Shown: piece by piece, positions 29,829 through 55,000 of the stretch
Numbering within the stretch: the stretch's first letter is position 1
Layout: the number at the start of each line of letters is the position of its first letter
Source: Amphiscolops sp. MND2022
Taxonomy: Eukaryota
Direction: 5' to 3'
NCBI GenBank assembly: GCA_964187785.1
Contig: OZ076409.1
Span: forward strand, 26,042,001 to 26,106,000
DNA: 64,000 nt
Position numbers and translations under genes: made by a program
Notes under the pieces: model-generated
Database searches by the model: none
Told to the model about the DNA's origin: nothing
What the model saw: only the letters and a program-made list of their open reading frames with translations

Positions 29829-30206
29829 TTCATTGTTGAAATTTGAAGTTAATGGTTACTGTAGCGTGAAAATATTTTACTCTGCCCCACAGGGGCCTAT
29901 TTCCACATAATACAGTTTACAAATATAACTCAATACAGGGCTTCTATTTTCGGCCCCTGAGACCCATTTGTGGTAACTTTTAATTTTTTTTCATTTTCAA
30001 TTGTTTTGTATCAGCGATTTGTCGCTTTTGTTGACAATCCAATTATACATTGAAGAGATTTTCAAGAATGCAGTTTCATTTGAGTCTTCCGTGAAGGAAG
30101 ATTCTTTGAGAGCCATCTTACTTTAAAATAGTATAAACGAAACCGGTGCTTGAGGCATGTTCTTTGTTTTGTTGCTCATGTTAGAATGATTCTCTTTTGT
30201 GTTCAG

Positions 30207-30744
30207 ATTCAAACATATTGCACTATCGCCAAGATTCTCGCCATCATTTTCATCGTTTGTATTGGTCTTGTGAAAATCATTATGGGCAACACTAAAACAC
30301 TGGCTAGTGGATTCGAAGGCAGTCAAAGAGACGTTTTTAAGCTGTCCCTTGCTTTCTATCAAGGCCTCTTCTCGTATGACGGTTGGAACCAGCTCAACTT
30401 CCTCACAGAGGAACTGCAGAATCCGAAGAGGAACCTGCCTCTTTCGATCATAATCGGTATTCCCCTGGTCATGGTGTGTTATCTACTTATGAATGTGGCC
30501 TATTTCGGAGTGCTGACGAAAGAGGACGTGTTGAACGAATCGGCACTGGCTATTGTCTTGGGCGAGAGAACTTTGTTCAAATGGATCGTGTGGATCATCC
30601 CTCTTTCAGTCTGTTTCTCAACTTTCGGCTCTACCAACGGAGAAATGTTCACTTGCGGCCGAATTGCATACGCCACTGCCCGTGAAGGTCACTTGCCGAG
30701 GATCTTTTCCTTCTGTCACACATCGTTTCACACTCCTGTTCTTG
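30207..30744 (+). CDS. SLC7/LAT transporter, exon 4
   Basis: IQTYCTIAK..., AFYQGLFSYDGWNQLNFLTEELQNPKRNLP, STFGSTNG, AREGHLP; AG/GT boundaries. Confidence 0.93.
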
Positions 30745-31178
30745 GTTAGTCATCAGTTTCTTGATATAGTATGATGCAATATTTTTGAATGAACCTTCGA
30801 TTCGCTTTAAAGGTCACTGTTGCATAATACTATTTATCTTACATTCTTTTTGTTTTATGGATTCCTCCAAGCAACATTCACTCATGAAGTACATTCCCTT
30901 AGCATCAATTTTGATTATTTCATGATGCTCACCCTAAATCATATCGTATCAAAATGACTGCAAAACTTGATGAGATGGAAGATAACTTATCGACTGTAGT
31001 ACTTTTTGGGTGGAATGGAACATTATCGGAATTTAAAAATCATGAAAATCTTCAGTATTCACATCAAATTTGAATAAAAGCGCCTCAATAAGTGTTTAAC
31101 AGTCATTTCATCGCTTGCAGTTTTCTGAAAAGTTTTTCTTGATTACACTATTCGTTATAACATTTCCTTTTTTCTCAG

Positions 31179-31606
31179 GTGTGGTAGTAACGGTTGCCAT
31201 GAGCACTTTGTACATCATGTTGGGAGACTTCAACGAACTAGTGGACTACTTCAGCTTCGCAGCCTGGGTCTTCTACTTCATCACAGTGCTGGGTCTGATC
31301 AGACTGCGCTGGACTATGGCTGACGTCAAGAGGGAGTTCAAAGTGCCCATAGTCATCCCCATCCTCTTCTGCATATGTGCCCTGTACCTCATTGTGGCCC
31401 CACTCATCGCGGAATTCGACCCTAAGTACATCATGGCGGTGCTCTTCATCCTGTTCGGCTTCGTCTACTACCTGCCCTTCGTTCAGTGTGGGGTCAAGGT
31501 CAAGTTCATGTACCCCTTGTTCACCTACATCCAGTACGCACTCAACATCGCCACTTCATATTACCACGAAGAGGAGGAGAATGAACAGGATCAAACAGCA
31601 GATAAG
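31179..31606 (+). CDS. SLC7/LAT transporter, exon 5 (3' end uncertain: donor GTTAAT at 31607 or read-through to 31786)
   Basis: LVDYFSFAAWVFY..GLIRLRWT....REFKVPIVIP; hydrophobic TM11-12. Confidence 0.85.
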
Positions 31607-31735
31607 GTTAATCCCTTCCATGTCACTAGTTTGGGTTTGACATGCAGTCAACTCCGTATTTTGCATCCGGATAATTCGGATCTTCGTTTAAATTGCATGT
31701 ATCCGAGCCCCTATTTCGAGACGACCAAAGAAATA

Positions 31736-31910
31736 CAGTGGATCCCGGATATAAGAAACCCTCTTATAAAAAATACCCGCTTATAGTCAATGCGTATCTT
31801 GGCCCCGATAGCCAATTTAATTTCTTTTGAAAACCCGCTTTTAAGAAAGTTCGATTATAAGAAACACCACTAGTCATTCCCGTGACGTTGATTATATCCG
31901 GGATTCACTG
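31736..31910. mobile_element. Tc1/mariner (pogo-like) MITE
   Basis: TA|CAGTGGATCCCGGATATAA ... TTATATCCGGGATTCACTG|TA. Confidence 0.8.
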
Positions 31911-33164
31911 TATCATCTGGTTAGTTCGTATTTTCTCATTATTCGTACTATTTTATTCGGTCCCTAGCTATAAGAATTGATGGATTCAAATATTAGCATG
32001 ATTCTTGTGAGCAAAATTGTCCATTCAATGTCAAGTATTCGTCAGTTAAAACATGCAGTTGCAAAGTCTTGTTCCTTCGAAAACTCTTGAACCTTGTGTT
32101 AGATTTTGAGTGACCATTTCAGTCCAAATTGATAAAACGTAATACTTGTAAATTGAAGTTGAGTTTGGCTGATTTTGCTCACAAAATGCTAAGTCAGTTC
32201 AAGTAGTTTTCACATCTTGTTTATTGGAGTCAAACTGAAATTACGGCAATTGTATAGGTTTTTGTACTCTTCACCGTTTAGTGGCAATTCTCCAGAAGAA
32301 TGCCTGATCAACCTCTCTTGTGCTCACGAAGAAGCTGTTGTGAAGTGTTGACACTTGTTTTGAATTTCAGAGTTTAGAAGCGAACACTGCCACTGCTTGT
32401 TGAGAGAGGTCTCCCATTTCATCTTACAATGTCAATCAGAATCAACGTTTCGAGATTTTTGCAACTAGAAGAAACCAGATACCTCAATTATGTACAATTT
32501 CCTTCGTATCTACTAATTTTCCTTCGTCGTAACCTTTGTATGCATTTGACGCTTTGTTCAATGTTGCTCGTAAAGTGTGAATTCATCATTATTCGGGTGA
32601 TCATTATACTTTTTCTCAAGCTCAAGAATTTTAAATTGTCGAGAAAAGTGATAAGATGGCCCTAGGACTAAGTAGACATTAAAACTCCCTTAAAAAACTC
32701 CTTAGGAGTAGTAATGGAGTATGTTGAGGTGATGACCTAAAAGAACATAGATGAATGCCCGAGATGTAAACAGATCATTGAACTATAAATTAGCAAAGCA
32801 GGCGTGAAAACTTATTGACCTGTTGATGAGTAAACTTTGCTAATAAACACGTGCTTCCTGTAACTATTTAATTGTCCTGTCAAGTATTTGTTTGTAATTA
32901 TCATCGACCAGAGTTGAGATGAATTCATTACCCCGGATTTGTGATTCTAATATTCAGTTGACTATTAACTAATCTCTGTTTTCATCACGCTACGCGAAAT
33001 ACTGCGCGATAGACTAAATCCTGATCGTAACAGGTTATGTTGCCCAGAGTGAATTGAACAGAGACAACTCTCGTACAAAAGCGCGCTCATCTCAATCAAC
33101 TGCCGATTGAAAAATTGTTTTCAACAGAAAGAAGCCTCTATAAAGAACGTTTTCCTGTGTCGAA

Positions 33165-33234
33165 ATGGACAGTGCAGCAATGAAATGGCTGTTTCTCTGG
33201 AAAACAAGAAGATTTTGCAACATGGAGTACCAGG
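33165..33234 (+). pseudogene. Copia gag N-terminus, split by the Maverick insertion
   Basis: FSGKQEDFATWSTR continues in frame as FIAYIQTKNL at 47573 once the element and one TSD copy are removed. Confidence 0.85.
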
Positions 33235-33286
33235 AGTAGTTTGATTTTATATACCCTTGTTAGAAATAGGGGGGGTTTAGTTTTAC

Positions 33287-33388
33287 AAAAATTTCCATTT
33301 CTAGCAAAGACTATGAGTCCCTCCCGGGACTCGAACCTCGCCGGTTGAAATGATGGCCGAGCACACTAACCACTCGGCCATCGGGAGG
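33287..33388 (-). ncRNA. Putative Pol III tRNA-like hairpin RNA (left arm copy)
   Basis: Reverse complement of 47414-47515. Confidence 0.5.
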
Positions 33389-34746
33389 CGGAATACTGTA
33401 ATATCAACACGCTTATTACAGAATGTATTCTCCCGCTAGCTGAGCGGTGAGTTAATTCAGCTCGCACAACAACTAATTGCATATTCAAAGATTTCGTAAT
33501 CTTATATTCGTATCATTTGTGTCGTAACAAAATCGTATCATATACAAATTGGATCTGGCTACAATTTGGATCTGGGCACTAATCGTGCACAGATCAGAAT
33601 AGTTTTTGACTATTTTGATGTCAGGCGAACAAATTTATGCTAGTGCTATGATAAATAACTCAAGGAAAGGTAGGCAAATAAAACGTGAAAGGCCAGCGGT
33701 CTTGTTTTAACCCCCAGTGTGGGTTCCCAGTTATATCCGCCCTCCTCCATAAAGAAGTAATTCGGCTGATCTGCTCCTTTTGTTTAAGAAATTGATCGTT
33801 TTCGGAGCCTAGACACACGCTTTTCTAATTCGCCGGCAGGATAAATTTATTCCGTAATTGTTACACTTGCTGTTTGTTTGTGAAAGTTGATTATGTAATA
33901 GCGGAAAACATTTAATGAAGATTGGGGAATAATCTCTTTTAATTCACTGACTGCGCTTCATGATACTTATATTTAATATGCGTGCAATTATTGCCCTAGC
34001 CAAATCCAGCCACTTTCCCAGATCTACAGCTTTGGGTGGTCTCTAAACATGAAGGTATTCTCCCCTTATTGAGACAATTTATCTCACTTGCGAATCACAA
34101 CATGCGCATTGTAAGTGAATGGGAATCGTTCAATCGACCCCTTCCTGAATTTAACCCCCCCCCCCCTCATTTGCGATGGCAAAACAAAACAAAAAGGTGA
34201 AAATGTTTTGTTCTTGCAAATATCTAGGTAAAACTACCAATGCAGTATGGCTCACATTTGCTTTTATCTTCCATTCTGTCTGGGATGGAATAATCAAAAC
34301 TTCTTTACAGCTCAGTAAAATAGTTAACAAAACAGTTCAAAATGAAAAGTAAACATTTGATAATTTCTTTTGTCAAGTTTCTTTTCTTTCATGCATCATT
34401 TTTGTTTGGATTTGATTTAACTGCAAAAGTTGGCAAGATTTTGTTTGCCTCGACAGTGACAGTCTAGTCTCAAGTCAGAAACACCAGTTGTTGCAAATCT
34501 TAACTTTCTTCATCTCCATTTTTCCTTACTGAATCAAATTTTATTGTTTTACTTGTCGAGTCTCGGTAACAAATCTGAAAGTCAGCTAGAACAATCACAT
34601 CTAGGCCTTCGAAATTGAAAATTTTTGCACAAGACGGTCCTCTGCAACTTTTGAGCTATCTTTTTGTTCTCCCTTTTGTCTCGCGTTTTTGTTCTCTATC
34701 TGTTCTTGCGTTTTTGTTCTCCCTTTTCTCTTGCCGATTAAACCCT

Positions 34747-35283
34747 ATGGATTATCTGAGAAGTTTATGGGACCTGGATCAGTCAAGAGTTGGCTTCTAC
34801 GAGTATGGGGAACCTGCTGCATTACTGCCTCCACCACCCAAGAAGCATGAAGTCGCCGAAGAATTGAAGGTCGAAATCTTGAAAACAACGTCGTTGAGAG
34901 ACGAATACCAAAGATCTGGCAAACAAAGAGTACGCCACAGAGCTTTTGTACTTGCTACCGATGGAAAGGGAAAAGTAGGCATCGGTATAAAGGTCAACCG
35001 AGTACAGAAAATAGCCATCGAAAAAGCAACTGATCAAGCCAAATCCGAGATGTTTGAAATTGCTCTCGGAAACTTTGACCCAGAAAAAGAAGAAAAACAC
35101 ACTTTATCTCAACAAGTTCATGGGCAGTACGACAAACTTGAAGTCATTCTAATTCCTGCTGCAACGGGTGCTGGACTGGAAGGTTCCGCAATTGTTCAAT
35201 TTATCCTCCGACTTATCGGAGTCAAGGACTGTATTGTTAAGCCCGAATCTAGTAAGTTTTCTGCTTTTCATCTCTTACTTTAA
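34747..35283 (+). CDS. Divergent ribosomal protein uS5 (RPS2)-like ORF, left arm; possible intron 35252-35345 and short exon to 35377
   Basis: LKVEILK...RVRHRAFVLATDGKGKVGIGIK...AIEKA...AK...HTL....G....V.LIPAATGAGL.....ILRLIGVKDC matches uS5 N- and C-domain patterns by eye. Confidence 0.8.
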   Translation: MDYLRSLWDLDQSRVGFYEYGEPAALLPPPPKKHEVAEELKVEILKTTSLRDEYQRSGKQRVRHRAFVLATDGKGKVGIGIKVNRVQKIAIEKATDQAKSEMFEIALGNFDPEKEEKHTLSQQVHGQYDKLEVILIPAATGAGLEGSAIVQFILRLIGVKDCIVKPESSKFSAFHLLL

Positions 35284-35804
35284 ACGGCCATCAATCCTGC
35301 ACTCACCGGAAGGAATCATCAAATTTTCTACTAATAACATTTCAGTGAATTCACAAATGGGGTTGATTACTGCTTGATTTCTGCTCTTCTTTTTCGAATG
35401 ACTATGAGTTTTTTTTTGTTCTTTGCAGCTCATGGAAATAACACGATAACAATGGCGTTGGCTGTTCTGAATGCACTTGGAAAACAATTCAACAAATAAT
35501 CGTGAGTTTTTATCTTTTGACTAGGCTTATTTGTCAAGATTTGTTTAACTGTCCCAACACACGAGTGATCAGCAGCGTAAACCCGAGACGTTTTTTGCGG
35601 TGCTTTCAACGTTCAAAACAATCGGTGTTTACGTTGTTGACAACTCCCCAACCCTCATTTTTGAAAGTTGAATAATGTTATTAGGCTTAAACTTCTACAG
35701 GTGTTTTGTATGATATTAGTATTTTCCCAATACGGTCTATCTGCAAATTCCTCTTATACAACCTTTTGTAACTTAGTAGTTTTGTATTTTCTTATCGAAC
35801 TGTC

Positions 35805-36805
35805 GGCATTAAAGCCCAATATTTTGCTTTTATAGCCAATCATTTTCTATTCTACGGTTATGGGGCTGCATTTAGGCCTGCGGGGGCGGCCTTGAAGTCC
35901 AATATTTTGCTTTTATAGCCAAGCCTTTTCCATTCTACGGCCGTGGGGCCGCGATTAGGCCTACGGGGGCGGCCTTGAAGCCCAGTATTTTGCTTTTATA
36001 GCCAAGCCTTTTCCGTTTTACGGTTATGGGGCCGCGATCAGGCCTACGGGGGCGGCATTAAAGCCCAATATTTTGCTTTTATAGCCAATCATTTTCTATT
36101 CTACGGCTGTGGGGCCGCAATTAGGCCTGCGGGGTGGAATTAAAGCCCAGTATTTTGCTTTTTCTACCAGGTATTTTTCATTTTACTGCTATGGGGCCGC
36201 AATAAGGCCTGCAGGGGCGGCATTAAAGCCCAATATTTTGCATTTACAGAGCAGCAATTTTCATTCTACGGTTATGGGGCCGCATTTAGGCCTGCGGGGC
36301 GGCATTAAAGCCCAGTATTTTGCTTTTTGAGCCAAGCATTTTTCATTTTACGCTTATGGGGCCGCAATAAGGCCTGCGGGGGTGGCTTTTATGCCCAATA
36401 TTTTGCTTTTATAGCCAAGCTTTTTCCAATCTACGGCTGTGGGCCGCATTTAGGCCTGCGGGGGCGGCATTGAAGCCCAATATTTTGCTTTTTAAGCCTA
36501 GCAATTTCCATTTTACGGTTATGGGGCCGCAATGAGGCCTGCGGGGGCGGCATTAAAGCCCAATATTTTGCTTTTTAAGCCAAGCATTTTTCTTTCTACG
36601 GTTATGGGGCCGCGATTAGGCCTGCGGGGGCGGCATTAAAGCCCAGTATTTTGCTTTTTAGGCCTAGCAATTTCCATTTTACGGTTATGGGGCCGCGATA
36701 AGGCCTGCGGGGGCAGCGTTTAAGCCCAGTATTTTGCTTTTATAGCAAAGTTATTTCCATTTAACGGCCGTGGTCGCGTTTATGCCTGCGAGGGAGGCCT
36801 TCAAG
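35805..36805. repeat. Satellite of ~12 x 82-83 bp units (left arm)
   Basis: gccca(a/g)tattttgc recurs at 82-83-bp spacing from 35820 to 36730. Confidence 0.95.
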
Positions 36806-37059
36806 GCCTTCAATCTGCTTTTTTCAATCATCTATCGATTCGTTTTTCATTTGGAAAATTACATTCTACATCTTTTGGAGAATAATCTCTGCTATTAGAC
36901 AACGCGTCGGCCAATAAAATGAGAGCAAAACAACACTGAATTTACAAATAGCTAACAGCTCAAAAGTACTTGAAAGCCTATTCAACAACTACTTGAGAAC
37001 AATACAAAGTAAAACAATGAAAACAGCACACATCTATGTAATGCAATTTTGCTCGAGTT

Positions 37060-37937
37060 TTATTCGCTGTCGCTCACAATCTCCATCCGTCTCCTTTTCG
37101 CTCTTTTTATCCTGTTCACAAACTCGTCATCGCTGAACCAATTGTCAAAATCAATTAGGTATTCCAAGTCTTCTATGGCGTTTGCCTCGTCTTCTGTCAG
37201 TGTCTCGACAATTACGCAGTCGTTAGGGTCTGACTCTTCGTCATCTTCGTGTGCAGTTTCACCTGTATCTGATGCTTCCACTGCCTCATCGTCAATGAAG
37301 GGATTTCTCGGAGGACTTCGCTCCTCAACAGATTCGTCCATGTTACTGAATTGGTCTTCCAGCTCGGAATCACTGTACTCTCTTTGGTGCATGCCTGGAT
37401 CGGGAGGCGACCATGCTTCCATTAACTGTTGAGTTAAAGAGACTGGCCCATCATCACTGACTCGAACTCGCAATGGTGATGACAGAGGGGCATTTGCCAG
37501 CATCGGAGCTTCATCTGGGAATATTTGGCTGATTGTGACTTGCGGATCATTGCCGTTCAATTCGTCCCATGTGGGACTTGATGGTATCTCTTCCTCTTCA
37601 TATCCCCATTCTGGTTCATCCACAATGTCTTGCTCAACATGAACATCTCTGATCATGTAGTGACCATGGGGTAAAGTTGAGATGCCGTCTTCTAATACAT
37701 AACGCTTGTCATCAAAGGAGCTGAGAGACACCTTGTTCGTCTTGATTGTTTGTAATTGGTGCTTTTGCGAGCCTATTCGCATGTTTACAGTCTTGTAGGA
37801 CTCCCCAGTTTTCAATACTTTTTTGTACAGCTCATGATTCAGTTCCTTCTGAGCGAATCGGCAAACTCCCTTTGCCGACAGCTTCTGCCTTCCTCCAACC
37901 ATGATTGAATACATTTTGGGTTTTAGTCCGACAAATT
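37060..37937 (-). pseudogene. Inverted duplicate of the PolB 3' end (part of the left arm)
   Basis: Near-identical to 42861-43738; begins mid-gene at FVGLKPKMYS. Confidence 0.9.
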
Positions 37938-38131
37938 TTATTCCTTACATTAGTGAACAAGAACTATTACGATTTGTAAAACATTTCATTTAATGCTGTC
38001 TTGTCTAATTGAGTTTTATCCTTTAAGCTTTTTTTTCGAAAACAAAGAGCACAAGAATGAATTATTCAAGTAAAAATTTTAAAAAAAAACATCATGGAAT
38101 CAACAAAGCTGCAAGACAAAACAAAAACAAA

Positions 38132-38509
38132 TTAAATGGTTTGAAAGTTCATTATATACACGGGCTCGCCATCCATAGCCCCCGGCTTCCAACAGTCATC
38201 TTCCTCCTCTAGCGTTACCACGGATGTGTAGGACCAGCCATTTGGCTCGATCGTTGTGTAGAAGGAGGAGAAACTAACTTTTTGGAGTCCTTTCCGTTGC
38301 GCGGGCATGCTCTTGAAGGACGATTTTTCTGGCTGGGGTTGTACTTTCGTAGAGGTTGATGGTGATGGTTCGAGCGGGGTCAAAGCCGGAAACACTCGTA
38401 TATAACAGCTGAATGTGACTGTTTTCCTCAGCGGGGGTCCAAAATTGGAAACCAGCTCGTCGTCGATTTTAAGGCAGGATCGGATTGGCATAGCAGTTGA
38501 ATCATACAT
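38132..38509 (-). CDS. 125-aa Maverick accessory ORF, divergent from PolB, with two RVxF-like motifs
   Basis: ATG-initiated ORF; RSCLK...RKTVTF and KSSFK...QKVSF. Confidence 0.55.
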   Translation of the reverse strand: MYDSTAMPIRSCLKIDDELVSNFGPPLRKTVTFSCYIRVFPALTPLEPSPSTSTKVQPQPEKSSFKSMPAQRKGLQKVSFSSFYTTIEPNGWSYTSVVTLEEEDDCWKPGAMDGEPVYIMNFQTI

Positions 38510-38799
38510 TTTTCAAGACGAGCAATAGGTGATTACTGAGGAAAGCCAGGAAAAGAATTCGAAAAGACTTTAATGTGATTTTAAAGCAAACTGATGATTT
38601 GCAAAATAGTTGAGTGAGCGAAAAGCAAAAAGTTGAAATCAAATAGCTGTTGATATTGATATCAGGCAAAAAGCAAATGATTTTGGGCTGTGGCCAGACA
38701 AGTCAGGCGGCGGCGAGCAACAGCTTGCATTTTTACGAGAGAGTGCTGAGAAAAATTAAACAACAACTCACTTTCTAGGGGAAATTTAACTGCGTAGCG

Positions 38800-39030
38800 T
38801 GTCTAGAGGGGAGGTGTTTCAACAGTTGCGCTTTCTTATCTTGCCGGTTCAAACAAATTCAACCGCCGATTGTCTGGGAGGGGGTGCGTCAGCTTGTCTC
38901 TATATTGCCGGTTCAAACGAGATTAACCGCCGGTTGTCTGAGAGGGGGTGCGTCAGCTTACAATTTTTTTTAAACCGGACAAAACGAGATTGAACGGCGA
39001 TTGTCTAAGTGGGGTGCGTCAGCTTGCGTC
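38800..39030. promoter_or_regulatory. Three to four imperfect ~65-70-bp repeats between the divergent ORFs (candidate bidirectional promoter)
   Basis: ttgtct..ggggtgcgtcagctt occurs three times and ttgccggttcaaac twice. Confidence 0.4.
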
Positions 39031-39337
39031 TGTCGTCGAACCCGAATAACCCCCGATAGCTCAATTTTAAAACGAAATTTCTCAAAAATAAAATCAAAAA
39101 TCTCCAACTTTGTTGCAAATCAGTTACCCTCACAAGCAAAAATTGTTGAAAACTAGATATTCTCACCTGCAATATTTGATTGAAAATACTATTTCAGATT
39201 GAAACTCAAATTCAAAAATCAAATCAAACAGTTAAAGAAACCGAATTCACTTTTTAAAAAACACTTTCTGAGCCCCTTGGGGTATTTCATTCAACAATCT
39301 GATATGGTAGTTTCAATCAAGTATCTATTCAGTCGAA

Positions 39338-42300
39338 ATGAGAACTTGTGACGTTTGCCAAAAATCGTTTGGAAACAAAAATTTACTTCGTCATCATCGG
39401 CGAAATGTTCACAAAATTCCTGCTTATCTCTTTCCCATGGAATGCAATGTTTGCCACAGGATGGAGCTATCTGTCGCACTAATTGATCAACACTTTCGAG
39501 AAAAACATGGAACACAACTGGACAAAATGTGTGTTTATTGCGGAGTTGGGTTCGATATACCTGAACACTTTTACAAACACTTGGAAGAGAAACACGAACT
39601 TCCACCACCTGCTGAATCAACCAAAGAGAAAACGAACCCAATATCATCAGCTTTTGACGGGGCGCTCAAAGTGTACAAAATTGAGGGATCAGGAGAAAAT
39701 GACTTGATGCAGTTCATGACTGACATCAAACCACAAATTGATCAACTGGTTAGCGAAAATGTAAACCGCACTGCCCGTAAACTGCAGCTAATTTTGAAAG
39801 TTGAGCTTTCACAACCAACAAAAGACGAGGAAACTCAAGTCTTTCTTCGCTCAAACATGGTGCCAGTGTATGGTACTAGTCTACCGCAAGACGATTTCCT
39901 CAGTGCAGTGGACCAGTTACTAAACACTTTGTTTACGTTCACAGCTTCTGGAAGTGGATGGATCTTGGAGAAAATTGTCGATCTGGATGTCAAGTTTGCA
40001 ACATTTAGCCCCATTCGAGGATCTTCCTACTTGCCTACTCCGCCCGAACTGGACGCATCGCACTTGCTACTAAACATACGAAACCGTCAAGATCACAATT
40101 GCTTCTTGTATTGTTTCACAGCCGCGTGGCACCTGAAGCACGGACCATTACTCTATGTCGCTGGTCGAGACTCATTAGCAAAGAGAACTAGCCCAGACAC
40201 TTATTCGCGACGCAACCCATTAGCTCATCAAGCTGAAGGCGAGTTTGAAATGCCAATGGGCTTCGGTCAGATGCTTCGATTCGAAAAATTGAATGATTGC
40301 AAAATCAACGTGTTTAGATACACTGAAAATCAACTGGTTCCCCTGCGAGTAACTCGAGAAAAAGGAGATGGCCTAGAAATTGACCTGTTGCTGGTGGATG
40401 ATGGACAAGAGTATCACTATATTCTGATACTTGACTTTTTGAGACTAGTTTCTATGGTGAAAGGAACCACAACACTGTATCAGAGAGTCCTCTGTAAAAA
40501 TTGTTTCCACATTTGCATGAATGAAAACACATACAGACGGCATCAAATCAGTTGCTTGCAACATGAACCAGCAGTAGTCAAAATGCCAACGCCTGAGAAA
40601 AACAAACTGAAGTTCGCGAATTTGGGTGCCCGGTGGTTCGCACCAGTTGTCATATATTTCGATCTGGAATCAATTATCAAACCAGTTGCAGGATGTCAGA
40701 ATGCAAAACAGCAAACAAGTATCACAGAAATTCATCAACCCAGTGGATTCTGCCTTATTGGAATTGAGCATGGGAATCCTAATCCCGTTTTCATGCAACT
40801 AGAGCGCTCTGAAAACTGCATGGAAAAGTTTGTAGGGGCACTTGAAAAGATTGCACAGGAAATGTATCAAAAGAAGCAAAGCAACCGGTACTTTCGAGAC
40901 TCAGTACCCGAAAGGCCTCAAGAAGCCCAACTTTGTTGGATATGCGAAGGTCAATTCGGAATAGTCAGAGACATCGAGGACGACAAGGTTATTGACCACT
41001 GTCATTACTCAGGAAAGTTTTTGGGATTCGCGCATCCGGAATGCAATCTCAAAAGAAAGACAGTCAATTTCATACCAGTCATGGCCCACAATCTGTCGAA
41101 TTACGACCTTCATCACGTGTGCTTATACATTCACAAGTTCAAACCCGGTTGCAAAGTAGACGTGATACCGAATACTGATGAGAAATACATTACCTTGACG
41201 ATCAGAGTACCTGTGAGGAGCTATCTAGACAAAAACGGACTAACAAAAACAGTGTTTGAGTACTTGCGTTTCATTGACTCGTTCAGGTTTATGGCTTCTT
41301 CACTCGAAAAACTTGCAAGCTATCTGCCAAAAGACAAGTTCAAGATACTGGACAGTTGCTTCGCTGACTATTCGGAATCAGACCGAGACCTTTTGCATCA
41401 AAAAGGGTACTACCCTTATTCGTATTTTGATAGTTTTGACAAGTTTCAAGAAGAAGAGCTCCCGCCAAGATATCAATGGACGGACTCACTGCGCAACAAA
41501 GCGATCATGTTGACTCAAGATGAATGGGAACACACAAAGAAGGTTTATGAACGATTCGCTTGCGCAAATTTGGGTGATTATCACGACCTATATCTTAAAA
41601 CTGACACTCTAATATTAGCATGTGTGGTTGAAGAATTTCGGAGCCTATGCTACACTACCTATGGCCTAGACAGCGCCCATTACTTCACCTGCTCGCATTT
41701 GTCTGGAGACGCCTTCTTGAAAAAATGTCGGGCAGACATTGAGCTTCTAACAGATCGCGAGCACCTAGAGATGGTGGAAAATATGATTAGAGGTGGTGTT
41801 GCATCTGTTTTTGACAAGAGGTTCTTCAAAGCGAACAACAGGTACGTGGCCGAGCATAACTATAATGACTACAACACTTACGGAGTGTTATTAGACGCAA
41901 ACAACTTGTATGGGGGTGTTATGGAAAAGTTACCACTGCCATTGAATAGCTTCGAAACAGTTCAAAACATTGATCTCAACAAAATCTTGGAAACAACTAA
42001 CGACTCTGAAGAAGGATACATTCTAGAAGTAGACTTGCATTACCCCGACAAACTTCATGACGGACATCAAGATTTTCCGCTAGCTCCAACAAAAGAGCGA
42101 ATATACTACAAAAGCCTTGGAGAGAAGCAGCAAGAGCTTCTAGAAATAATGGGTGAAACTAGACCTTATAGTCAGGGGACGAAGTTGATTCAGTCACTGT
42201 CAAACAAAAGCAACTACACTGTCCATTATATAACACTGAAGCTCTACGTTAGCCTTGGCATGGAAGTGAAGAAAGTACATCGAGTGTTGAAGTTCAAACA

Positions 42301-43738
42301 AACAAAATGGTTGAAACCATACATGGAGCTAAATACCGCAAAGAGAAAAGAATCTCGAAACAAGTTCGAAGAGAGTTTCTTCAAATTAATGAATAACTCA
42401 TGCTACGGAAAAACGCTCGAGAGCAAGCGAAACCGCCTCACTGTTCAGTTAATAAGCAACCGAGAAAGTCTTTTGAGGAGAACAGACACCCCGTTCTTTT
42501 GTGAGTTTAAAATCTTCAATGAAAATCTTGCAGCTATTTCGTCAAGGAAAAGATCCATCTTGTGGAACAAACCAACAATAGTCGGAGCATCTGTTTTAGA
42601 CTTGGCCAAATTCCACATGTTCAATTTCCACTATAATGTAATGAAAAAGCACCTGAACTGCTTCGTGTTATATTCTGACACAGATTCTCTGTTGTATGAG
42701 ATTAAATACACAGACTTTTATGAAGAGCTAGCAACCAATGATGAGCTCCGCCAGCACTTTGACCTCTCCAATTACCCTAAAGAACATCACCTCTATAACG
42801 CTGATAATAAAATGGTCACACTCAAGTTCAAGGATGAACTCGGAGGAGAGCCAATCGAAGAATTTGTCGGACTAAAACCCAAAATGTATTCAATCATGGT
42901 TGGAGGAAGGCAGAAGCTGTCGGCAAAGGGAGTTTGCCGATTCGCTCAGAAGGAACTGAATCATGAGCTGTACAAAAAAGTATTGAAAACTGGGGAGTCC
43001 TACAAGACTGTAAACATGCGAATAGGCTCGCAAAAGCACCAATTACAAACAATCAAGACGAACAAGGTGTCTCTCAGCTCCTTTGATGACAAGCGTTATG
43101 TATTAGAAGACGGCATCTCAACTTTACCCCATGGTCACTACATGATCAGAGATGTTCATGTTGAGCAAGACATTGTGGATGAACCAGAATGGGGATATGA
43201 AGAGGAAGAGATACCATCAAGTCCCACATGGGACGAATTGAACGGCAATGATCCGCAAGTCACAATCAGCCAAATATTCCCAGATGAAGCTCCGATGCTG
43301 GCAAATGCCCCTCTGTCATCACCATTGCGAGTTCAAGTCAGTGATGATGGGCCAGTCTCTTTAACTCAACAGTTAATGGAAGCATGGTCGCCTCCCGATC
43401 CAGGCATGCACCAAAGAGAGTACAGTGATTCCGAGCTGGAAGACCAATTCAGTAACATGGACGAATCTGTTGAGGAGCGAAGTCCTCCGAGAAATCCCTT
43501 CATTGACGATGAGGCAGTGGAAGCATCAGATACAGGTGAAACTGCACACGAAGATGACGAAGAGTCAGACCCTAACGACTGCGTAATTGTCGAGACACTG
43601 ACAGAAGACGAGGCAAACGCCATAGAAGACTTGGAATACCTAATTGATTTTGACAATTGGTTCAGCGATGACGAGTTTGTGAACAGGATAAAAAGAGCGA
43701 AAAGGAGACGGATGGAGATTGTGAGCGACAGCGAATAA
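39338..43738 (+). CDS. polB: Protein-primed family B DNA polymerase (Maverick pPolB), 1466 aa, intact
   Basis: Three N-terminal C2H2 fingers; GSGW; OTU-like DHNCFLYC..HY; ExoI FDLES; EndoVII/HNH CWIC..DHCH.SG..G.AH..CN; ExoII HNLSNYD; KGYYPY; ExoIII YLKTD; motif A LDANNLYG; motif B KLMNNSCYGK; motif C YSDTDS; KMY; AKGV; DDKRY; acidic tail. Confidence 0.96.
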   Translation: MRTCDVCQKSFGNKNLLRHHRRNVHKIPAYLFPMECNVCHRMELSVALIDQHFREKHGTQLDKMCVYCGVGFDIPEHFYKHLEEKHELPPPAESTKEKTNPISSAFDGALKVYKIEGSGENDLMQFMTDIKPQIDQLVSENVNRTARKLQLILKVELSQPTKDEETQVFLRSNMVPVYGTSLPQDDFLSAVDQLLNTLFTFTASGSGWILEKIVDLDVKFATFSPIRGSSYLPTPPELDASHLLLNIRNRQDHNCFLYCFTAAWHLKHGPLLYVAGRDSLAKRTSPDTYSRRNPLAHQAEGEFEMPMGFGQMLRFEKLNDCKINVFRYTENQLVPLRVTREKGDGLEIDLLLVDDGQEYHYILILDFLRLVSMVKGTTTLYQRVLCKNCFHICMNENTYRRHQISCLQHEPAVVKMPTPEKNKLKFANLGARWFAPVVIYFDLESIIKPVAGCQNAKQQTSITEIHQPSGFCLIGIEHGNPNPVFMQLERSENCMEKFVGALEKIAQEMYQKKQSNRYFRDSVPERPQEAQLCWICEGQFGIVRDIEDDKVIDHCHYSGKFLGFAHPECNLKRKTVNFIPVMAHNLSNYDLHHVCLYIHKFKPGCKVDVIPNTDEKYITLTIRVPVRSYLDKNGLTKTVFEYLRFIDSFRFMASSLEKLASYLPKDKFKILDSCFADYSESDRDLLHQKGYYPYSYFDSFDKFQEEELPPRYQWTDSLRNKAIMLTQDEWEHTKKVYERFACANLGDYHDLYLKTDTLILACVVEEFRSLCYTTYGLDSAHYFTCSHLSGDAFLKKCRADIELLTDREHLEMVENMIRGGVASVFDKRFFKANNRYVAEHNYNDYNTYGVLLDANNLYGGVMEKLPLPLNSFETVQNIDLNKILETTNDSEEGYILEVDLHYPDKLHDGHQDFPLAPTKERIYYKSLGEKQQELLEIMGETRPYSQGTKLIQSLSNKSNYTVHYITLKLYVSLGMEVKKVHRVLKFKQTKWLKPYMELNTAKRKESRNKFEESFFKLMNNSCYGKTLESKRNRLTVQLISNRESLLRRTDTPFFCEFKIFNENLAAISSRKRSILWNKPTIVGASVLDLAKFHMFNFHYNVMKKHLNCFVLYSDTDSLLYEIKYTDFYEELATNDELRQHFDLSNYPKEHHLYNADNKMVTLKFKDELGGEPIEEFVGLKPKMYSIMVGGRQKLSAKGVCRFAQKELNHELYKKVLKTGESYKTVNMRIGSQKHQLQTIKTNKVSLSSFDDKRYVLEDGISTLPHGHYMIRDVHVEQDIVDEPEWGYEEEEIPSSPTWDELNGNDPQVTISQIFPDEAPMLANAPLSSPLRVQVSDDGPVSLTQQLMEAWSPPDPGMHQREYSDSELEDQFSNMDESVEERSPPRNPFIDDEAVEASDTGETAHEDDEESDPNDCVIVETLTEDEANAIEDLEYLIDFDNWFSDDEFVNRIKRAKRRRMEIVSDSE

Positions 43739-43994
43739 AACTCGAGCAAAAATTCTTTTTGCATTACATAGATGTGTGCTGTTTTCATTGTTTTGCTTTG
43801 TATTGTTCTCAAGTAGTTGTTGAATAGGCTTTCAAGTACTTTTGAGCTGTTAGCTATTTGTAAATTCAGTGTTGTTTTGCTCTCATTTTATTGGCCGACG
43901 CGTTGTCTAATAGCAGAGATTATTCTCCAAAAGATGTAGAATGTAATTTTCCAAATGAAAAACGAATCGATAGATGATTGAAAAAAGCAGATTG

Positions 43995-45001
43995 AAGGCC
44001 TTGAAGGCCTCCCTCGCAGGCATAAACGCGACCACGGCCGTTAAATGGAAATAACTTTGCTATAAAAGCAAAATACTGGGCTTAAACGCTGCCCCCGCAG
44101 GCCTTATCGCGGCCCCATAACCGTAAAATGGAAATTGCTAGGCCTAAAAAGCAAAATACTGGGCTTTAATGCCGCCCCCGCAGGCCTAATCGCGGCCCCA
44201 TAACCGTAGAAAGAAAAATGCTTGGCTTAAAAAGCAAAATATTGGGCTTTAATGCCGCCCCCGCAGGCCTCATTGCGGCCCCATAACCGTAAAATGGAAA
44301 TTGCTAGGCTTAAAAAGCAAAATATTGGGCTTCAATGCCGCCCCCGCAGGCCTAAATGCGGCCCACAGCCGTAGATTGGAAAAAGCTTGGCTATAAAAGC
44401 AAAATATTGGGCATAAAAGCCACCCCCGCAGGCCTTATTGCGGCCCCATAAGCGTAAAATTAAAAATGCTTGGCTCAAAAAGCAAAATACTGGGCTTTAA
44501 TGCCGCCCCGCAGGCCTAAATGCGGCCCCATAACCGTAGAATGAAAATTGCTGCTCTGTAAATGCAAAATATTGGGCTTTAATGCCGCCCCTGCAGGCCT
44601 TATTGCGGCCCCATAGCAGTAAAATGAAAAATACTTGGTAGAAAAAGCAAAATACTGGGCTTTAATTCCACCCCGCAGGCCTAATTGCGGCCCCACAGCC
44701 GTAGAATAGAAAATGATTGGCTATAAAAGCAAAATATTGGGCTTTAATGCCGCCCCCGTAGGCCTGATCGCGGCCCCATAACCGTAAAACGGAAAAGGCT
44801 TGGCTATAAAAGCAAAATATTGGGCTTCAAGGCCGCCCCCGTAGGCCTAATCGCGGCCCCACGGCCGTAGAATGGAAAAGGCTTGGCTATAAAAGCAAAA
44901 TATTGGGCTTCAAGGCCGCCCCCGCAGGCCTAAATGCAGCCCCATAACCGTAGAATAGAAAATGATTGGCTATAAAAGCAAAATATTGGGCTTTAATGCC
45001 G
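43995..45001. repeat. Satellite of ~12 x 83 bp (right arm, inverted)
   Basis: Reverse complement of 35805-36805. Confidence 0.95.
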
Positions 45002-45520
45002 ACAGTTCGATAAGAAAATACAAAACTACTAAGTTACAAAAGGTTGTATAAGAGGAATTTGCAGATAGACCGTATTGGGAAAATACTAATATCATACAAA
45101 ACACCTGTAGAAGTCTAAGCCTAATAACATTATTCAACTTTCAAAAATGAGGGTTGGGGAGTTGTCAACAACGTAAACACCGATTGTTTTGAACGTTGAA
45201 AGCACCGCAAAAAACGTCTCGGGTTTACGCTGCTGATCACTCGTGTGTTGGGACAGTTAAACAAATCTTGACAAATAAGCCTAGTCAAAAGATAAAAACT
45301 CACGATTATTTGTTGAATTGTTTTCCAAGTGCATTCAGAACAGCCAACGCCATTGTTATCGTGTTATTTCCATGAGCTGCAAAGAACAAAAAAAACTCAT
45401 AGTCATTCGAAAAAGAAGAGCAGAAATCAAGCAGTAATCAACCCCATTTGTGAATTTACTGAAATGTTATTAGTAGAAAATTTGATGATTCCTTCCGGTG
45501 AGTGCAGGATTGATGGCCGT

Positions 45521-46057
45521 TTAAAGTAAGAGATGAAAAGCAGAAAACTTACTAGATTCGGGCTTAACAATACAGTCCTTGACTCCGATAAGTCGGAGGA
45601 TAAATTGAACAATTGCGGAACCTTCCAGTCCAGCACCCGTTGCAGCAGGAATTAGAATGACTTCAAGTTTGTCGTACTGCCCATGAACTTGTTGAGATAA
45701 AGTGTGTTTTTCTTCTTTTTCTGGGTCAAAGTTTCCGAGAGCAATTTCAAACATCTCGGATTTGGCTTGATCAGTTGCTTTTTCGATGGCTATTTTCTGT
45801 ACTCGGTTGACCTTTATACCGATGCCTACTTTTCCCTTTCCATCGGTAGCAAGTACAAAAGCTCTGTGGCGTACTCTTTGTTTGCCAGATCTTTGGTATT
45901 CGTCTCTCAACGACGTTGTTTTCAAGATTTCGACCTTCAATTCTTCGGCGACTTCATGCTTCTTGGGTGGTGGAGGCAGTAATGCAGCAGGTTCCCCATA
46001 CTCGTAGAAGCCAACTCTTGACTGATCCAGGTCCCATAAACTTCTCAGATAATCCAT
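45521..46057 (-). CDS. uS5 (RPS2)-like ORF, right arm copy
   Basis: Translation identical to the left-arm copy. Confidence 0.8.
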   Translation of the reverse strand: MDYLRSLWDLDQSRVGFYEYGEPAALLPPPPKKHEVAEELKVEILKTTSLRDEYQRSGKQRVRHRAFVLATDGKGKVGIGIKVNRVQKIAIEKATDQAKSEMFEIALGNFDPEKEEKHTLSQQVHGQYDKLEVILIPAATGAGLEGSAIVQFILRLIGVKDCIVKPESSKFSAFHLLL

Positions 46058-47413
46058 AGGGTTTAATCGGCAAGAGAAAAGGGAGAACAAAAACGCAAGA
46101 ACAGATAGAGAACAAAAACGCGAGACAAAAGGGAGAACAAAAAGATAGCTCAAAAGTTGCAGAGGACCGTCTTGTGCAAAAATTTTCAATTTCGAAGGCC
46201 TAGATGTGATTGTTCTAGCTGACTTTCAGATTTGTTACCGAGACTCGACAAGTAAAACAATAAAATTTGATTCAGTAAGGAAAAATGGAGATGAAGAAAG
46301 TTAAGATTTGCAACAACTGGTGTTTCTGACTTGAGACTAGACTGTCACTGTCGAGGCAAACAAAATCTTGCCAACTTTTGCAGTTAAATCAAATCCAAAC
46401 AAAAATGATGCATGAAAGAAAAGAAACTTGACAAAAGAAATTATCAAATGTTTACTTTTCATTTTGAACTGTTTTGTTAACTATTTTACTGAGCTGTAAA
46501 GAAGTTTTGATTATTCCATCCCAGACAGAATGGAAGATAAAAGCAAATGTGAGCCATACTGCATTGGTAGTTTTACCTAGATATTTGCAAGAACAAAACA
46601 TTTTCACCTTTTTGTTTTGTTTTGCCATCGCAAATGAGGGGGGGGGGTTTAAATTCAGGAAGGGGTCGATTGAACGATTCCCATTCACTTACAATGCGCA
46701 TGTTGTGATTCGCAAGTGAGATAAATTGTCTCAATAAGGGGAGAATACCTTCATGTTTAGAGACCACCCAAAGCTGTAGATCTGGGAAAGTGGCTGGATT
46801 TGGCTAGGGCAATAATTGCACGCATATTAAATATAAGTTTCATGAAGCGCAGTCAGTGAATTAAAAGAGATTATTCCCCAATCTTCATTAAATGTTTTCC
46901 GCTATTACATAATCAACTTTCACAAACAAACAGCAAGTGTAACAATTACGGAATAAATTTATCCTGCCGGCGAATTAGAAAAGCGTGTGTCTAGGCTCCG
47001 AAAACGATCAATTTCTTAACAAAAGGAGCAGATCAGCCGAATTACTTCTTTATGGAGGAGGGCGGATATAACTGGGAGCCCACACTGGGGGTTAAAACAA
47101 GACCGCTGGCCTTTCACGTTTTATTTGCCTACCTTTCCTTGAGTTATTTATCATAGCACTAGCATAAATTTGTTCGCCTGACATCAAAATAGTCAAAAAC
47201 TATTCTGATCTGTGCACGATTAGTGCCCAGATCCAAATTGTAGCCAGATCCAATTTGTATATGATACGATTTTGTTACGACACAAATGATACGAATATAA
47301 GATTACGAAATCTTTGAATATGCAATTAGTTGTTGTGCGAGCTGAATTAACTCACCGCTCAGCTAGCGGGAGAATACATTCTGTAATAAGCGTGTTGATA
47401 TTACAGTATTCCG

Positions 47414-47515
47414 CCTCCCGATGGCCGAGTGGTTAGTGTGCTCGGCCATCATTTCAACCGGCGAGGTTCGAGTCCCGGGAGGGACTCATAGTCTTTGCTA
47501 GAAATGGAAATTTTT
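47414..47515 (+). ncRNA. Putative Pol III tRNA-like hairpin RNA (right arm copy)
   Basis: A box TGGCCGAGTGG (47422-32), B box GGTTCGAGTCC (47465-75), T5 at 47511-15; stems CCTCCCG/CGGGAGG and GATGGCCGAG/CTCGGCCATC. Confidence 0.5.
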
Positions 47516-47572
47516 GTAAAACTAAACCCCCCTATTTCTAACAAGGGTATATAAAATCAAACTACTACCAGG

Positions 47573-52050: not shown

Positions 52051-55000
52051 GTGGGGGTGTTGAGGTGATGACCTAAAAGAACATAGATGAATGCCCGAGA
52101 TGTAAACAGATCATTGAACTATAAATTAGCAAAGCAGGCGTGAAAACTTATTGACCTGTTGATGAGTAAACTTTGCTAATAAACACGTGCTTCCTATAAC
52201 TATTTAATTGTCCTGTCAAGTATTTGTTTGTAATTATTATCGACCAGAGTTGAGATCAATTCATTACCCCGGATTTGTGATTCTAATATTCAGTTGACTA
52301 TTAACTAATCTCTGTTTTCATCACGCTACGCGAAATACTGCGCGATAGACTAAATCCTGATCGTAACAGTAGAAAGTAGATTGTGAGGAATCTTGAACGG
52401 ATGATGTAGTAATACAAAAGTTGAAAAATCGAAAAATTTCAAACAAATTTGCAATTTACAATAGTTGAAAGTTCCATCTTCGCTTCATGTTTTACTGCCT
52501 ATCAACTGCACAATCATGCTTCTCTCCTTTTTGGGTTGAAGTTTCAACATCGATCGAAGTTTTTACATTTCATTTTACCTTCTCCTTGATGTTTCGTCCG
52601 GCGTTTTCATCAAAAGTTGCTCAAAAAGTTTATCTTCATACCATGTTGATCCTCAGTCTTCTGTATTTGGAAATAACATACATCACTAGTTAAAACGAAA
52701 TAACTATACTAACTTCAATTTTCATTTATCGTAGAGATTTACCTTTTGATGATCCTGTTATTGATATCCCGACAATTTTTTTCTTGAGAAAGTTAAGGCG
52801 ATTGAACTAAAATCAAATTGAAAAGAAGTTGATCATGAAGACTACTATTTATCTTCCATTTACAAAACGTTCATTTTCCGTCCATAAATCTTTATGGGAA
52901 ATTTTTAGGAGAATATTAACTCAGCGGAGCTTTGAGAAAAATTACCACGTCTCAATTTCATTCCCAAATTATTTATTCCACAGAATTTAGCTGCCTTAAC
53001 ATTAGGTTCGTGTTATCAGTAGAAGTTGAGAACTTGGAAATTTTTGGAAACCGTGCCTCAAATTACTACCAAAATGCCCCCAAAAATGCCAAGGTTTTCA
53101 AAAGCAAAAGTTTTTGCCACCAGTCGATCGAATGAATTTAGGGAAATTTCAAGAAAGCATTGTCTCAAGAGCTAATGTCAAATGATTGCAGCAAAACACG
53201 GCTGAATTTCTTAGTTGTTATTAATCCTGTTTCGAATTCGAAATGCCTCAAATTTAATTGTTTTTCGAGTATCTAAGATTATAAAACTGAATCTTGAAAA
53301 AACAACGAAAGTAAATCACTCTTTTTAGTGATGGTTGAAAGATTCACAAACCGAATGTGAGACGCATTTTGTGAAGTTCCAAACAAGGCCAACCATTTCG
53401 ACAAATTACTAACAATTGATCTTGAGAAAATTGACGACACTTTTGCACAGAACGTTTGCCTGTACTGATAACTATTTTGGATTGACTTTTTTGCCGATTG
53501 ATTATTCATCTCTCGTTTCTTGAACGGAACCAAAATATTCGGTATTTTCAATAAAAATACTCTGAGTTGAAAATGGTTTTCCGTTTCTCTTCCAAGGTTA
53601 AAAGAAGTTCGATCGTATTCAGAACTTTCTGAAAGTCCATCCAGAGCTGCAAGCTCGAAAAACATCTCAATCCTCCAGCTCTAAAAAGAAGTACTCCAAA
53701 CAGAAAGTAGTGACAGGTTCTACGAGAAAAACACCAGCGTTGACAACTATTTGTCGATGTTTACCTACTGAAGAAGCCCTTCCCTAAGTTTCAAGAGGTC
53801 AAATAGGTAAATGTAGTGTCTACGGGCAAGTTTTGCGACCAAGTAAACCAGCTGAGACGAATCTATTGATACATGATTGTAACCTTGTAGCGATCACCTT
53901 GCTTTGCTTACGTTCAAGGTTCAATAGATGACAAAGTCGAAGACTTCTTCAGAAAAAATAGTGACGAACATTCAAGAAATTGAAGCTTTTGCCAGCAAGC
54001 TATGCTACCATTCTGTTTGTTACTCTCTGCTGGGGCTAAACCGAATAAGGAATTTAAAAGTCCGTTTGTTTTTTTTCCAGAATGTTTCCCAGAAACAACG
54101 ACTTCCAACGTCAACATTAAACTCACTGTAAACCACACCACTTCTTACTATTCAGAGACTCAAATACCTCACAGGGTCTTTTTTGAATGGGTTTTGGCTG
54201 CCCGAGAAGCCTGCCAAAAAATGGACGCCCCAAGACGGCGCCCCGCTTAAAGCTCGAATAGCGCAATCTTTTCAGCCTGTTTCTAAGAAAAATCTCAAAA
54301 AATTCACTGTCAAAAAATTTGAGCGCGCTTGTGGCTTAAACGCTTTTCCTAAACTGGAAATGTCAAAAACCCAAATCGGTGAGTATATCTTCTCTTGAAA
54401 AGTCGCACAGTGCTGAAAAATTCCAACGAGGGCCTTTTAGGCTCAAACTTATTTTCCCCATCTGTAAACATTTTTAAAAATTGGAGACCATTCAGTGAAA
54501 AAAAATCGGGAAAAAAGTCGGTCGTTGTCCAGAAAAGCATTGTCTGGAACTAAAGTTGGCTCTATATTTGAGGCTCAAAAAGCGCAAAAGTTAATTATTC
54601 TCAGGACTTTTCAATTGAAAAACGTACAAACAAGTGCCGAAACACCCGAACGGTGCCTTTCGTGCTCGGGAAACGCTTCAAACGTTCCAGATCTAGCGTG
54701 CTTGGCCATATGCCACATGGCACCGCTTTTTTCGAATCTCGGGCTCCTCCTGATTAAAGCGCAATTTACTTCGGATCTAACGTCAAAATTCGGATACATC
54801 GCACTAATTTCGATCCTCCGCTTCCTCATTAGTAAAATGCAATTTACTTCGGATACAACGTGCTCAGACAAATTGGAGCGCTTTTTCGACCCTACTCTTC
54901 CGCAGTGAAACAAATTACTTCGGATATAACGTCCACAGTTCAAATAGAGCGTGCTGGGACCAACGGGAGGGCTTGTTTTCGAACCGCCTCCTCTTTAGTA

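Follow-up and report, generated by a model that had tools for sequence, protein, structure and literature searches.

A divergent homolog of ribosomal protein uS5 as probable exchangeable cargo of Maverick elements in an Amphiscolops genome

In nematode Mavericks, as far as the accessible text on them goes, cargo genes such as the WASP proteases and KRMA kinases lie in a poorly conserved region of 2-5 kb beside a terminal repeat, and this region, as in the elements we describe here, holds host-derived genes, some of them intron-bearing, and undergoes modular exchange (10.1101/2022.07.12.499685). Vertebrate Mavericks, in the portions of their description available to us, have in common with the present elements the (AGT)2//(ACT)2 ends, 6-bp duplications, a size of 12.7-24.6 kb and accessory regions beside the core (PMC8097293). 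Exchange of polymerases between Polintons (PMC10748475) and mosaicism among small eukaryotic DNA viruses (10.64898/2026.10.13.758929) are likewise described in the accessible parts of those papers. Ribosomal protein genes without an assigned use have also been noted in virus-type genomes, and the available excerpts name eL40 in FloV-SA2 and Imitervirales (PMC11499249), eL40 and S27a in ChrysoHV (PMC13595923) and antisense eS30 in FBR murine sarcoma virus (PMC6375957). A sequence-only reading of the locus studied here knew of no description of uS5 as Maverick cargo, and our literature search for Polinton/Maverick together with ribosomal terms agrees, in that it returned no account of uS5 carried by a Maverick or a eukaryotic virus, with the proviso that supplements, Repbase or the gene tables of subscription journals could hold one. 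In the main text, to the extent available, the string 'ribosom' is absent from 10.1101/2022.07.12.499685, PMC8097293, one further Maverick paper and 10.64898/2026.10.13.758929, and 'uS5' is absent from the accessible portions of PMC11499249 and PMC6375957. The uS5 Maverick family is thus apparently undescribed.

The locus lies in a stretch of 64,000 nucleotides of Amphiscolops sp. MND2022 (the window; contig OZ076409.1, positions 26,042,001 to 26,106,000), where a Maverick/Polinton foldback derivative of 14,332 bp (33235..47566) with the ends AGTAGT...ACTACT is flanked by a 6-bp target duplication (33229-33234 and 47567-47572). Compared with its sister elements it lacks anything to the left of the protease 3' end: the left half has been lost and the right 4.7 kb, copied in inverted orientation, stands in its place, the two arms being 99.5% identical over 4.7 kb. 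It is this foldback duplication of the right end that put the uS5-like gene into both arms. The sequence-only reading had noted a copy in each, which stands insofar as exon 1 is the same sequence in both, and has to be qualified insofar as both stem from a single foldback rearrangement. A polymerase-like ORF of 1466 aa (39338..43738, + strand) begins with three C2H2 fingers and has an endonuclease VII-like insert; its motifs, read from the sequence, are presumably those of protein-primed family B polymerases, and searches of Pfam, PHROGs and PDB sequences returned no polymerase match, with weak library matches only. An inverted duplicate of the polymerase 3' end (37060..37937, -) forms the inner end of the left arm, the foldback junction carries a 3' remnant of an adenovirus-type protease gene (37938..37993, +; by comparison with sister L067), and a 125-aa ORF with no assigned function (38132..38509, -) is also present in sister elements. 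The Maverick sits within the gag of a copia element whose LTRs (32722-33033 and 52058-52369) are 99.0% identical, and because these differ at 3/312 sites its insertion is taken to be recent. Directly left of the nested insertions, at 30186-31786, are amino acid permease exons (Pfam AA_permease_2). Elsewhere in the genome, facing pairs of uS5-like genes stand 13-15 kb apart at C6:69346506/69359960 and C3:27737567/27753012, which suggests that foldback derivatives recur.

The uS5-like ORF (34747-35283, +, 178 aa; mirrored in the opposite arm at 45521-46057, -) had been read from its motifs as a highly divergent uS5/RPS2 homolog, and the profile and structure searches bear this out. Both Pfam domains exceed their cut-offs (Ribosomal_S5, E 2.8e-9, 37.3 bits against 27.1; Ribosomal_S5_C, E 9.3e-7, 28.7 bits against 21.5), and the top PDB sequence matches of the protein are 40S uS5. 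Exon 1 (34747..35251, +; 168 codons and one base) encodes the dsRBD-like S5 N domain and most of S5_C, as judged by Pfam, AlphaFold2 and fold searches. Its AlphaFold2 model (pLDDT 78, residues 11-36 poorly modelled) matches 40S uS5 in Foldseek with a TM of 0.70 and an rmsd of 1.8 A, and uS5 in a second fold search with Z 15.3; behind the uS5 family and Rad52 the fold matches are mostly canonical dsRBDs at Z ~5, covering residues 35-105. For the uS5-like protein of element L141, a single-sequence fold prediction reached a pLDDT of 35. The window protein is 34% identical to host RPS2 over 122 residues, and the element proteins as a set are 24-40% identical to it. No match to the uS5-like protein was found among BFVD viral folds at E 0.001, and the gene was found at 0 loci in the viral contigs searched, one candidate aside, and in none of the phage records searched.

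An intron at 35252-35345 had also been proposed; its donor at 35252 stands, and the conserved acceptor is the one at 35428. As judged from conservation, a phase-1 intron of 177 nt (35252..35428, +, GTAAGT...TTTGCAG) would be followed by exon 2 (35429..35499, +) encoding the final S5_C helix and the stop, colinear with the intronless relatives L029 and L087. In the mirror copy, which is the original right end (45306..46057, -), exon 1 lies at 45553-46057 and exon 2 at 45306-45376. Donor and acceptor are common to subfamilies 58-94% identical, and when the acceptor equivalent to 35428 is used the introns measure 70-177 nt and exon 2 codes for the final uS5 helix; these acceptors were chosen by script through a helix-like pattern, which gave none in 6/27 loci (L001-L027), several of them broken. 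Identity in exon 2 (0.60-0.97) tracks that in exon 1 (0.62-0.96) while the intron drops to 0.33-0.89, and intronless relatives have equal spacing across the exon 1/exon 2 boundary. The acceptor at 35345 was rejected: it reads into an unrelated 9-residue tail ending at 35377, and its AG is missing in L007-L009. Host RPS2 has a phase-1 intron equally far from the last helix, and displaced by one codon as measured on its other side. Because the element intron is confined to one nested group (support 100/97) whose sister group is without it, inheritance from host RPS2 and parallel gain may each account for it, and one gain competes with several losses. A donor derived from coding sequence of the intronless sister was also considered and is unsupported by the comparison.

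Assignment to the Mavericks follows from the terminal inverted repeats, (AGT)2//(ACT)2 ends and 6-bp target duplication. Three near-identical sister elements of ~17.8 kb have ~150-bp terminal repeats and 6-bp target duplications, a fourth is more distant and longer, and in L112/L049 the terminal repeats are 234 bp. A single uS5-like gene is present in 4/4 fully examined sisters, together with the integrase, ATPase, capsid and protease genes that are absent from the window derivative (rve, 6.8e-12; Pox_A32, 4.3e-5; Peptidase_C5, 0.0019, the last below cut-off); their double jelly-roll capsid scores 0.97-0.98 by atlas features. Across the genome we count at least 320 uS5-like places, mostly in Mavericks, from the merged match tables of several queries, a figure with hand-entered coordinates that takes in fragments and tandem repeats and excludes the two host genes and two non-element matches. 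With the window protein as query, 150 scored matches were obtained among 316 candidates. The position of the gene is fixed: among the best 150 of 2531 candidate matches to a polymerase segment, 120, as a lower bound, are followed 1-8 kb downstream by a uS5-like gene in convergent orientation. Seen from the gene, 17/20 uS5-like contexts have a polymerase within 5 kb, two have one further away and one is host RPS2, and of 13 additional uS5-like stretches 11 occur with a polymerase, the remaining two being one tandem array.

The uS5-like proteins form at least eight deep groups in trees, and a single split sets all element rows apart from cellular uS5 (98/95 with 79 rows, 96/92 with 32 rows), host RPS2 among the latter. 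A single capture fits this tree, and long branches would give the same picture; a tree that unites the element rows with host RPS2 is rejected, though weakly (p-AU 0.024), again under long branches. The best named cellular matches of the element proteins are RPS2, 38/51 rows score higher on a eukaryote-type than on an archaea-type profile (the type labels being assigned by identity), and K83 is found in 95% of eukaryote-type and of element rows and in 0/7 archaea-type rows. The database proteins P0043 and P0039 are matched in this assembly at 45-62% at best, and on this ground other genomes likely harbour members of the family as well. The two canonical host RPS2 genes (C5:874103 and C5:66370669) are 99% identical, with a dN/dS of 0.01. 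A divergent multi-exon RPS2 paralog (L064, C1:84.64 Mb), which is without the intron of the two canonical genes, has no Maverick core gene within 10 kb. Tandem arrays or fragments of uS5-like genes occur at C7:42.17-42.19 Mb (L131, L132), C12:37.26-37.27 Mb (L066) and C3:58.05 Mb, and the tandem genes of L131, L132 and L066 have no Maverick core gene within their stretches; such arrays are possibly the product of host re-capture or local amplification.

We scored 54 columns kept in 19 eukaryote-type uS5 sequences across 43 element rows, and compared them with the residues through which uS5 sits in the subunit, whose rRNA-facing assignment we take in part as assumed. Gly, Pro and Ala columns are kept in 64% and other classes in 32-39%, with hydrophobic columns kept no better than polar ones. 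In host numbering, K83, R98, G113, A125, A129, A133, T154, G193 and D196 are kept in at least 88% of element rows, and Q90, T97, E121, V122, P139 (0/43) and W145 (3/43) are lost. Loops of fixed length in cellular uS5 are 4 to 20 long in the elements, cut by up to 11 residues, and the element rows seen have neither the RG/FG N-terminal tail nor the C-terminal extension. Many of the invariant rRNA- and neighbour-facing residues of a working 40S uS5, its fixed loops and its terminal extensions are lacking in the element proteins, a pattern that would argue against a working ribosomal subunit. This bears on the three roles offered by the sequence-only reading, an RNA-binding silencing suppressor, a ribosome modifier or a decoy, and first on the ribosome modifier, which would be replacing or competing with host uS5 in some 40S subunits and shifting scanning or decoding toward element mRNAs. 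The full uS5 fold speaks for it, as do the five sampled rows (L090, L141, L144, L147 and L148) that keep the archaeo-eukaryotic N-terminal segment and the substitution proposed for phage bS21 in the accessible text of PMC11499249; however, an identity of 24-40% to a protein whose two host paralogs are 99% identical, combined with the lost invariant surface residues and C-terminal extension and the cut loops, makes it very unlikely in our estimation.

The two-domain uS5 fold is whole in all groups, as would also suit a decoy or mimic titrating binders of free uS5 (PRMT3, ZNF277, PDCD2, PDCD2L) or 40S quality-control factors. Free uS5 indeed has conserved non-ribosomal partners, PRMT3 and ZNF277 competing for one site, and its RG-rich N-terminal tail carries methylated arginines and the Tsr4/PDCD2 site, according to the available part of PMC10216425. 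The host genome has a ZNF277-like exon, with no further ZNF277 exons found within 8 kb of it; the PRMT3 finger family matched nothing in the genome, and neither did the controls of that search. However, that RG-rich, FG-bearing tail is absent from all element rows seen, and a conserved partner should hold a surface constant, whereas no more than a dozen or so columns, most of them structural, persist in at least 80% of element rows; we therefore regard the decoy as unlikely. The core net charge is positive in 43/43 element rows (+1 to +16); the window's group is weakly basic at +1 to +4, whereas eukaryote-type uS5 ranges from +9 to +17. Where the N-domain helix begins, 25/29 cellular rows have Glu, in place of which 34/43 element rows have Ser, Thr, Asp or Asn, and at the two positions that follow, Lys or Arg is found in 27/43 element rows versus 2/29 cellular rows; the window's group has one lysine there and no S/T/D/N. 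The basic helix-2 signature of dsRBDs resembles such a start, and Pfam dsrm gave no match in 25 element proteins at E up to 10; the change may be a surface freed from rRNA, nothing more. We infer that the uS5-like protein is a fold kept soluble and basic that may no longer be fitted to the 40S subunit.

Could the gene be a neutral passenger or pseudogene spread by the copying of the element? Frameshifts or stops do occur in some genomic copies, as would be expected once an element has inserted. Against this, dN/dS is 0.05-0.36 in 18/18 pairs at most 75% identical, with pN < pS in 500/500 bootstraps each, values that are pairwise counts and rough for the distant pairs because dS is near saturation. 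Among the eight closer pairs it is 0.35-0.53 in seven and 1.77 in one with 2 silent changes, as is expected where post-insertion drift mixes in. Open frames hold across groups less than 30% identical, and splice sites and exon 2 persist although the intron decays. Barring faulty alignments, the diverged pairs refute the passenger, to which we give next to no credence. The view of the sequence-only reading, that the gene is long-term selected cargo and no fresh pseudogene, is upheld by these values together with the hundreds of copies, their fixed place and the at least eight deep groups.

The gene also likely moves between backbones, and this cassette exchange, which the sequence-only reading could not see, is the most informative feature of all. 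It lies in a cassette of ~2.3 kb (45002..47350; mirror about 33450-35803) bounded on its inner edge by an 83-bp tandem array of ~12 units (44038..45001; mirror 35804-36767), and between elements of equal polymerase the DNA likeness runs through this array to ~45001, breaks, and returns in the last 165-225 bp. Polymerase and uS5-like identities over 35 elements are uncorrelated (Mantel r -0.08; 1760/2000 permutations as high), in a set where most rows were picked for uS5 diversity and one polymerase segment is degraded. Elements with polymerase segments 99-100% identical carry uS5-like versions only 26-59% identical, and between the window and L141 the polymerase segments do not differ, yet the uS5-like proteins are 27% identical; in five pairs, the reverse, 67-79% is common in uS5-like proteins and only 60-69% in the polymerase. 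Unrelated cassette types occur even where capsids are 98-99% identical. When 16 elements were taken by polymerase rank alone, 11 had a uS5-like gene and 5 had other DNA, including a 323-aa JmjC-like ORF (L155:4298-5266, -; an atlas lead, with no Pfam match) and short ORFs without assigned function common to three elements (L150, L152, L156). Because about one fifth of elements are without a uS5-like gene, or with one undetected, the gene is not essential. The array between polymerase and cargo varies in unit and sequence between element groups (L043, L040, L049, L152 and others), so array type may limit which cassettes swap. That the gene is selected, uS5-derived, exchangeable Maverick cargo we hold to be nearly certain.

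This exchange also weighs on the idea that the product belongs to the element's own machinery, as a genome-binding virion protein or a partner of the polymerase C2H2 fingers. A small basic protein in a fixed place in most elements would suit such a role, and known uS5 partners depend on C2H2 fingers, in the accessible text of PMC10216425, and the polymerase begins with three; but the gene exchanges freely against polymerase and capsid types, and unrelated cargo replaces it in 5/16 elements, so that we find the idea highly improbable. Many deep alleles in one slot, reshuffled over backbones, are by contrast what a specificity factor between elements would show, through exclusion or a ribosome-assembly poison and antidote, with alleles under frequency-dependent selection, and a cargo protease of nematode Mavericks did become the toxin of a toxin-antidote element, as the available text has it (10.1101/2022.07.12.499685). 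Yet no partner gene was found in the window cassette, with no ORF of at least 60 aa between terminus and gene, and the host tolerates hundreds of copies, all types together, which leaves this reading quite unlikely.

Beyond the observed homology, fold, fixed position, copy number, selection and mismatch of cassette and backbone, we tentatively favour, while holding it somewhat short of probable, a product that acts as a free RNA-binding factor outside the ribosome and aids the element against host RNA-level control. Such a history might have begun long ago with a Maverick capturing a cytosolic RPS2 gene, followed by loss of the tails and of the surface residues fitting uS5 into the 40S subunit. 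The basic scaffold of dsRBD-like domain and S5_C would then bind structured or double-stranded RNA, cassettes would be exchanged via crossovers in the common 83-bp array and the terminal 200 bp, and host conflict would maintain the deep allelic diversity. Other cargo in 5/16 of the same slots, one of it JmjC-like, is what would be expected of a host-interaction slot. Against the RNA-binding factor, in diverged families at large Gly, Pro and Ala columns tend to be those that survive best, and a sequence-blind RNA binder does not obviously need many alleles. Near the terminus, ~90 bp inside, a long hairpin with a Pol III A/B box-like motif (47408..47490, +; mirror near 33312-33394) occurs in 7/11 loci tested and is kept across elements with differing cassettes; what we take to be its A and B boxes is accompanied by no ARAGORN tRNA and no Rfam match, and the region may yield a small structured RNA. 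Adenovirus VA RNA offers a likeness for such a terminal RNA.

On the wider picture, we put forward as a possibility that a virus-like transposon has domesticated a core 40S protein, that its at least eight diverged uS5 alleles are interchangeable RNA-binding or ribosome-mimicking weapons against the host, and that the tandem arrays may be host re-captures. The family amounts to a naturally occurring collection of uS5 variants with which to probe what this ribosomal fold is capable of away from the ribosome, and it makes the purpose of Maverick cargo open to test. It also carries a warning for annotation, since, in a genome like this one, 'RPS2-like' calls numbering in the hundreds belong to elements. 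With cytosolic uS5/RPS2 the element proteins have in common both Pfam domains, the fold and residues of the K83/R98/G113/T154/G193/D196 type, with the N-terminal segment in some element groups and a matching-phase intron in one; they differ in having neither eukaryotic tail, in loops of variable length, in the loss of many invariant surface residues and in far faster evolution. Unlike the vertebrate Mavericks, as portrayed in the accessible text of PMC8097293, the core genes here all run in one direction, a single host-derived family predominates in the accessory slot, and the window copy is a foldback derivative. Compared with Polinton polymerase exchange (PMC10748475, in the part available), the break points here isolate the cassette. 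In contrast to the nematode Mavericks, on the available description (10.1101/2022.07.12.499685), the cargo is a ribosomal protein homolog, downstream of and facing the polymerase in most elements, and a single genome contains many deep alleles of it. Eukaryotic viruses rarely carry ribosomal proteins, and those reported, in the excerpts of PMC11499249, PMC13595923 and PMC6375957, are small, host-like and of ubiquitin-fusion type, eL40 being 85% identical to the host's. Here, by contrast, an early, universal protein of the 40S core, 24-40% identical to the host's, is the main accessory gene across a Maverick radiation, carried in an integrating 18-kb element.
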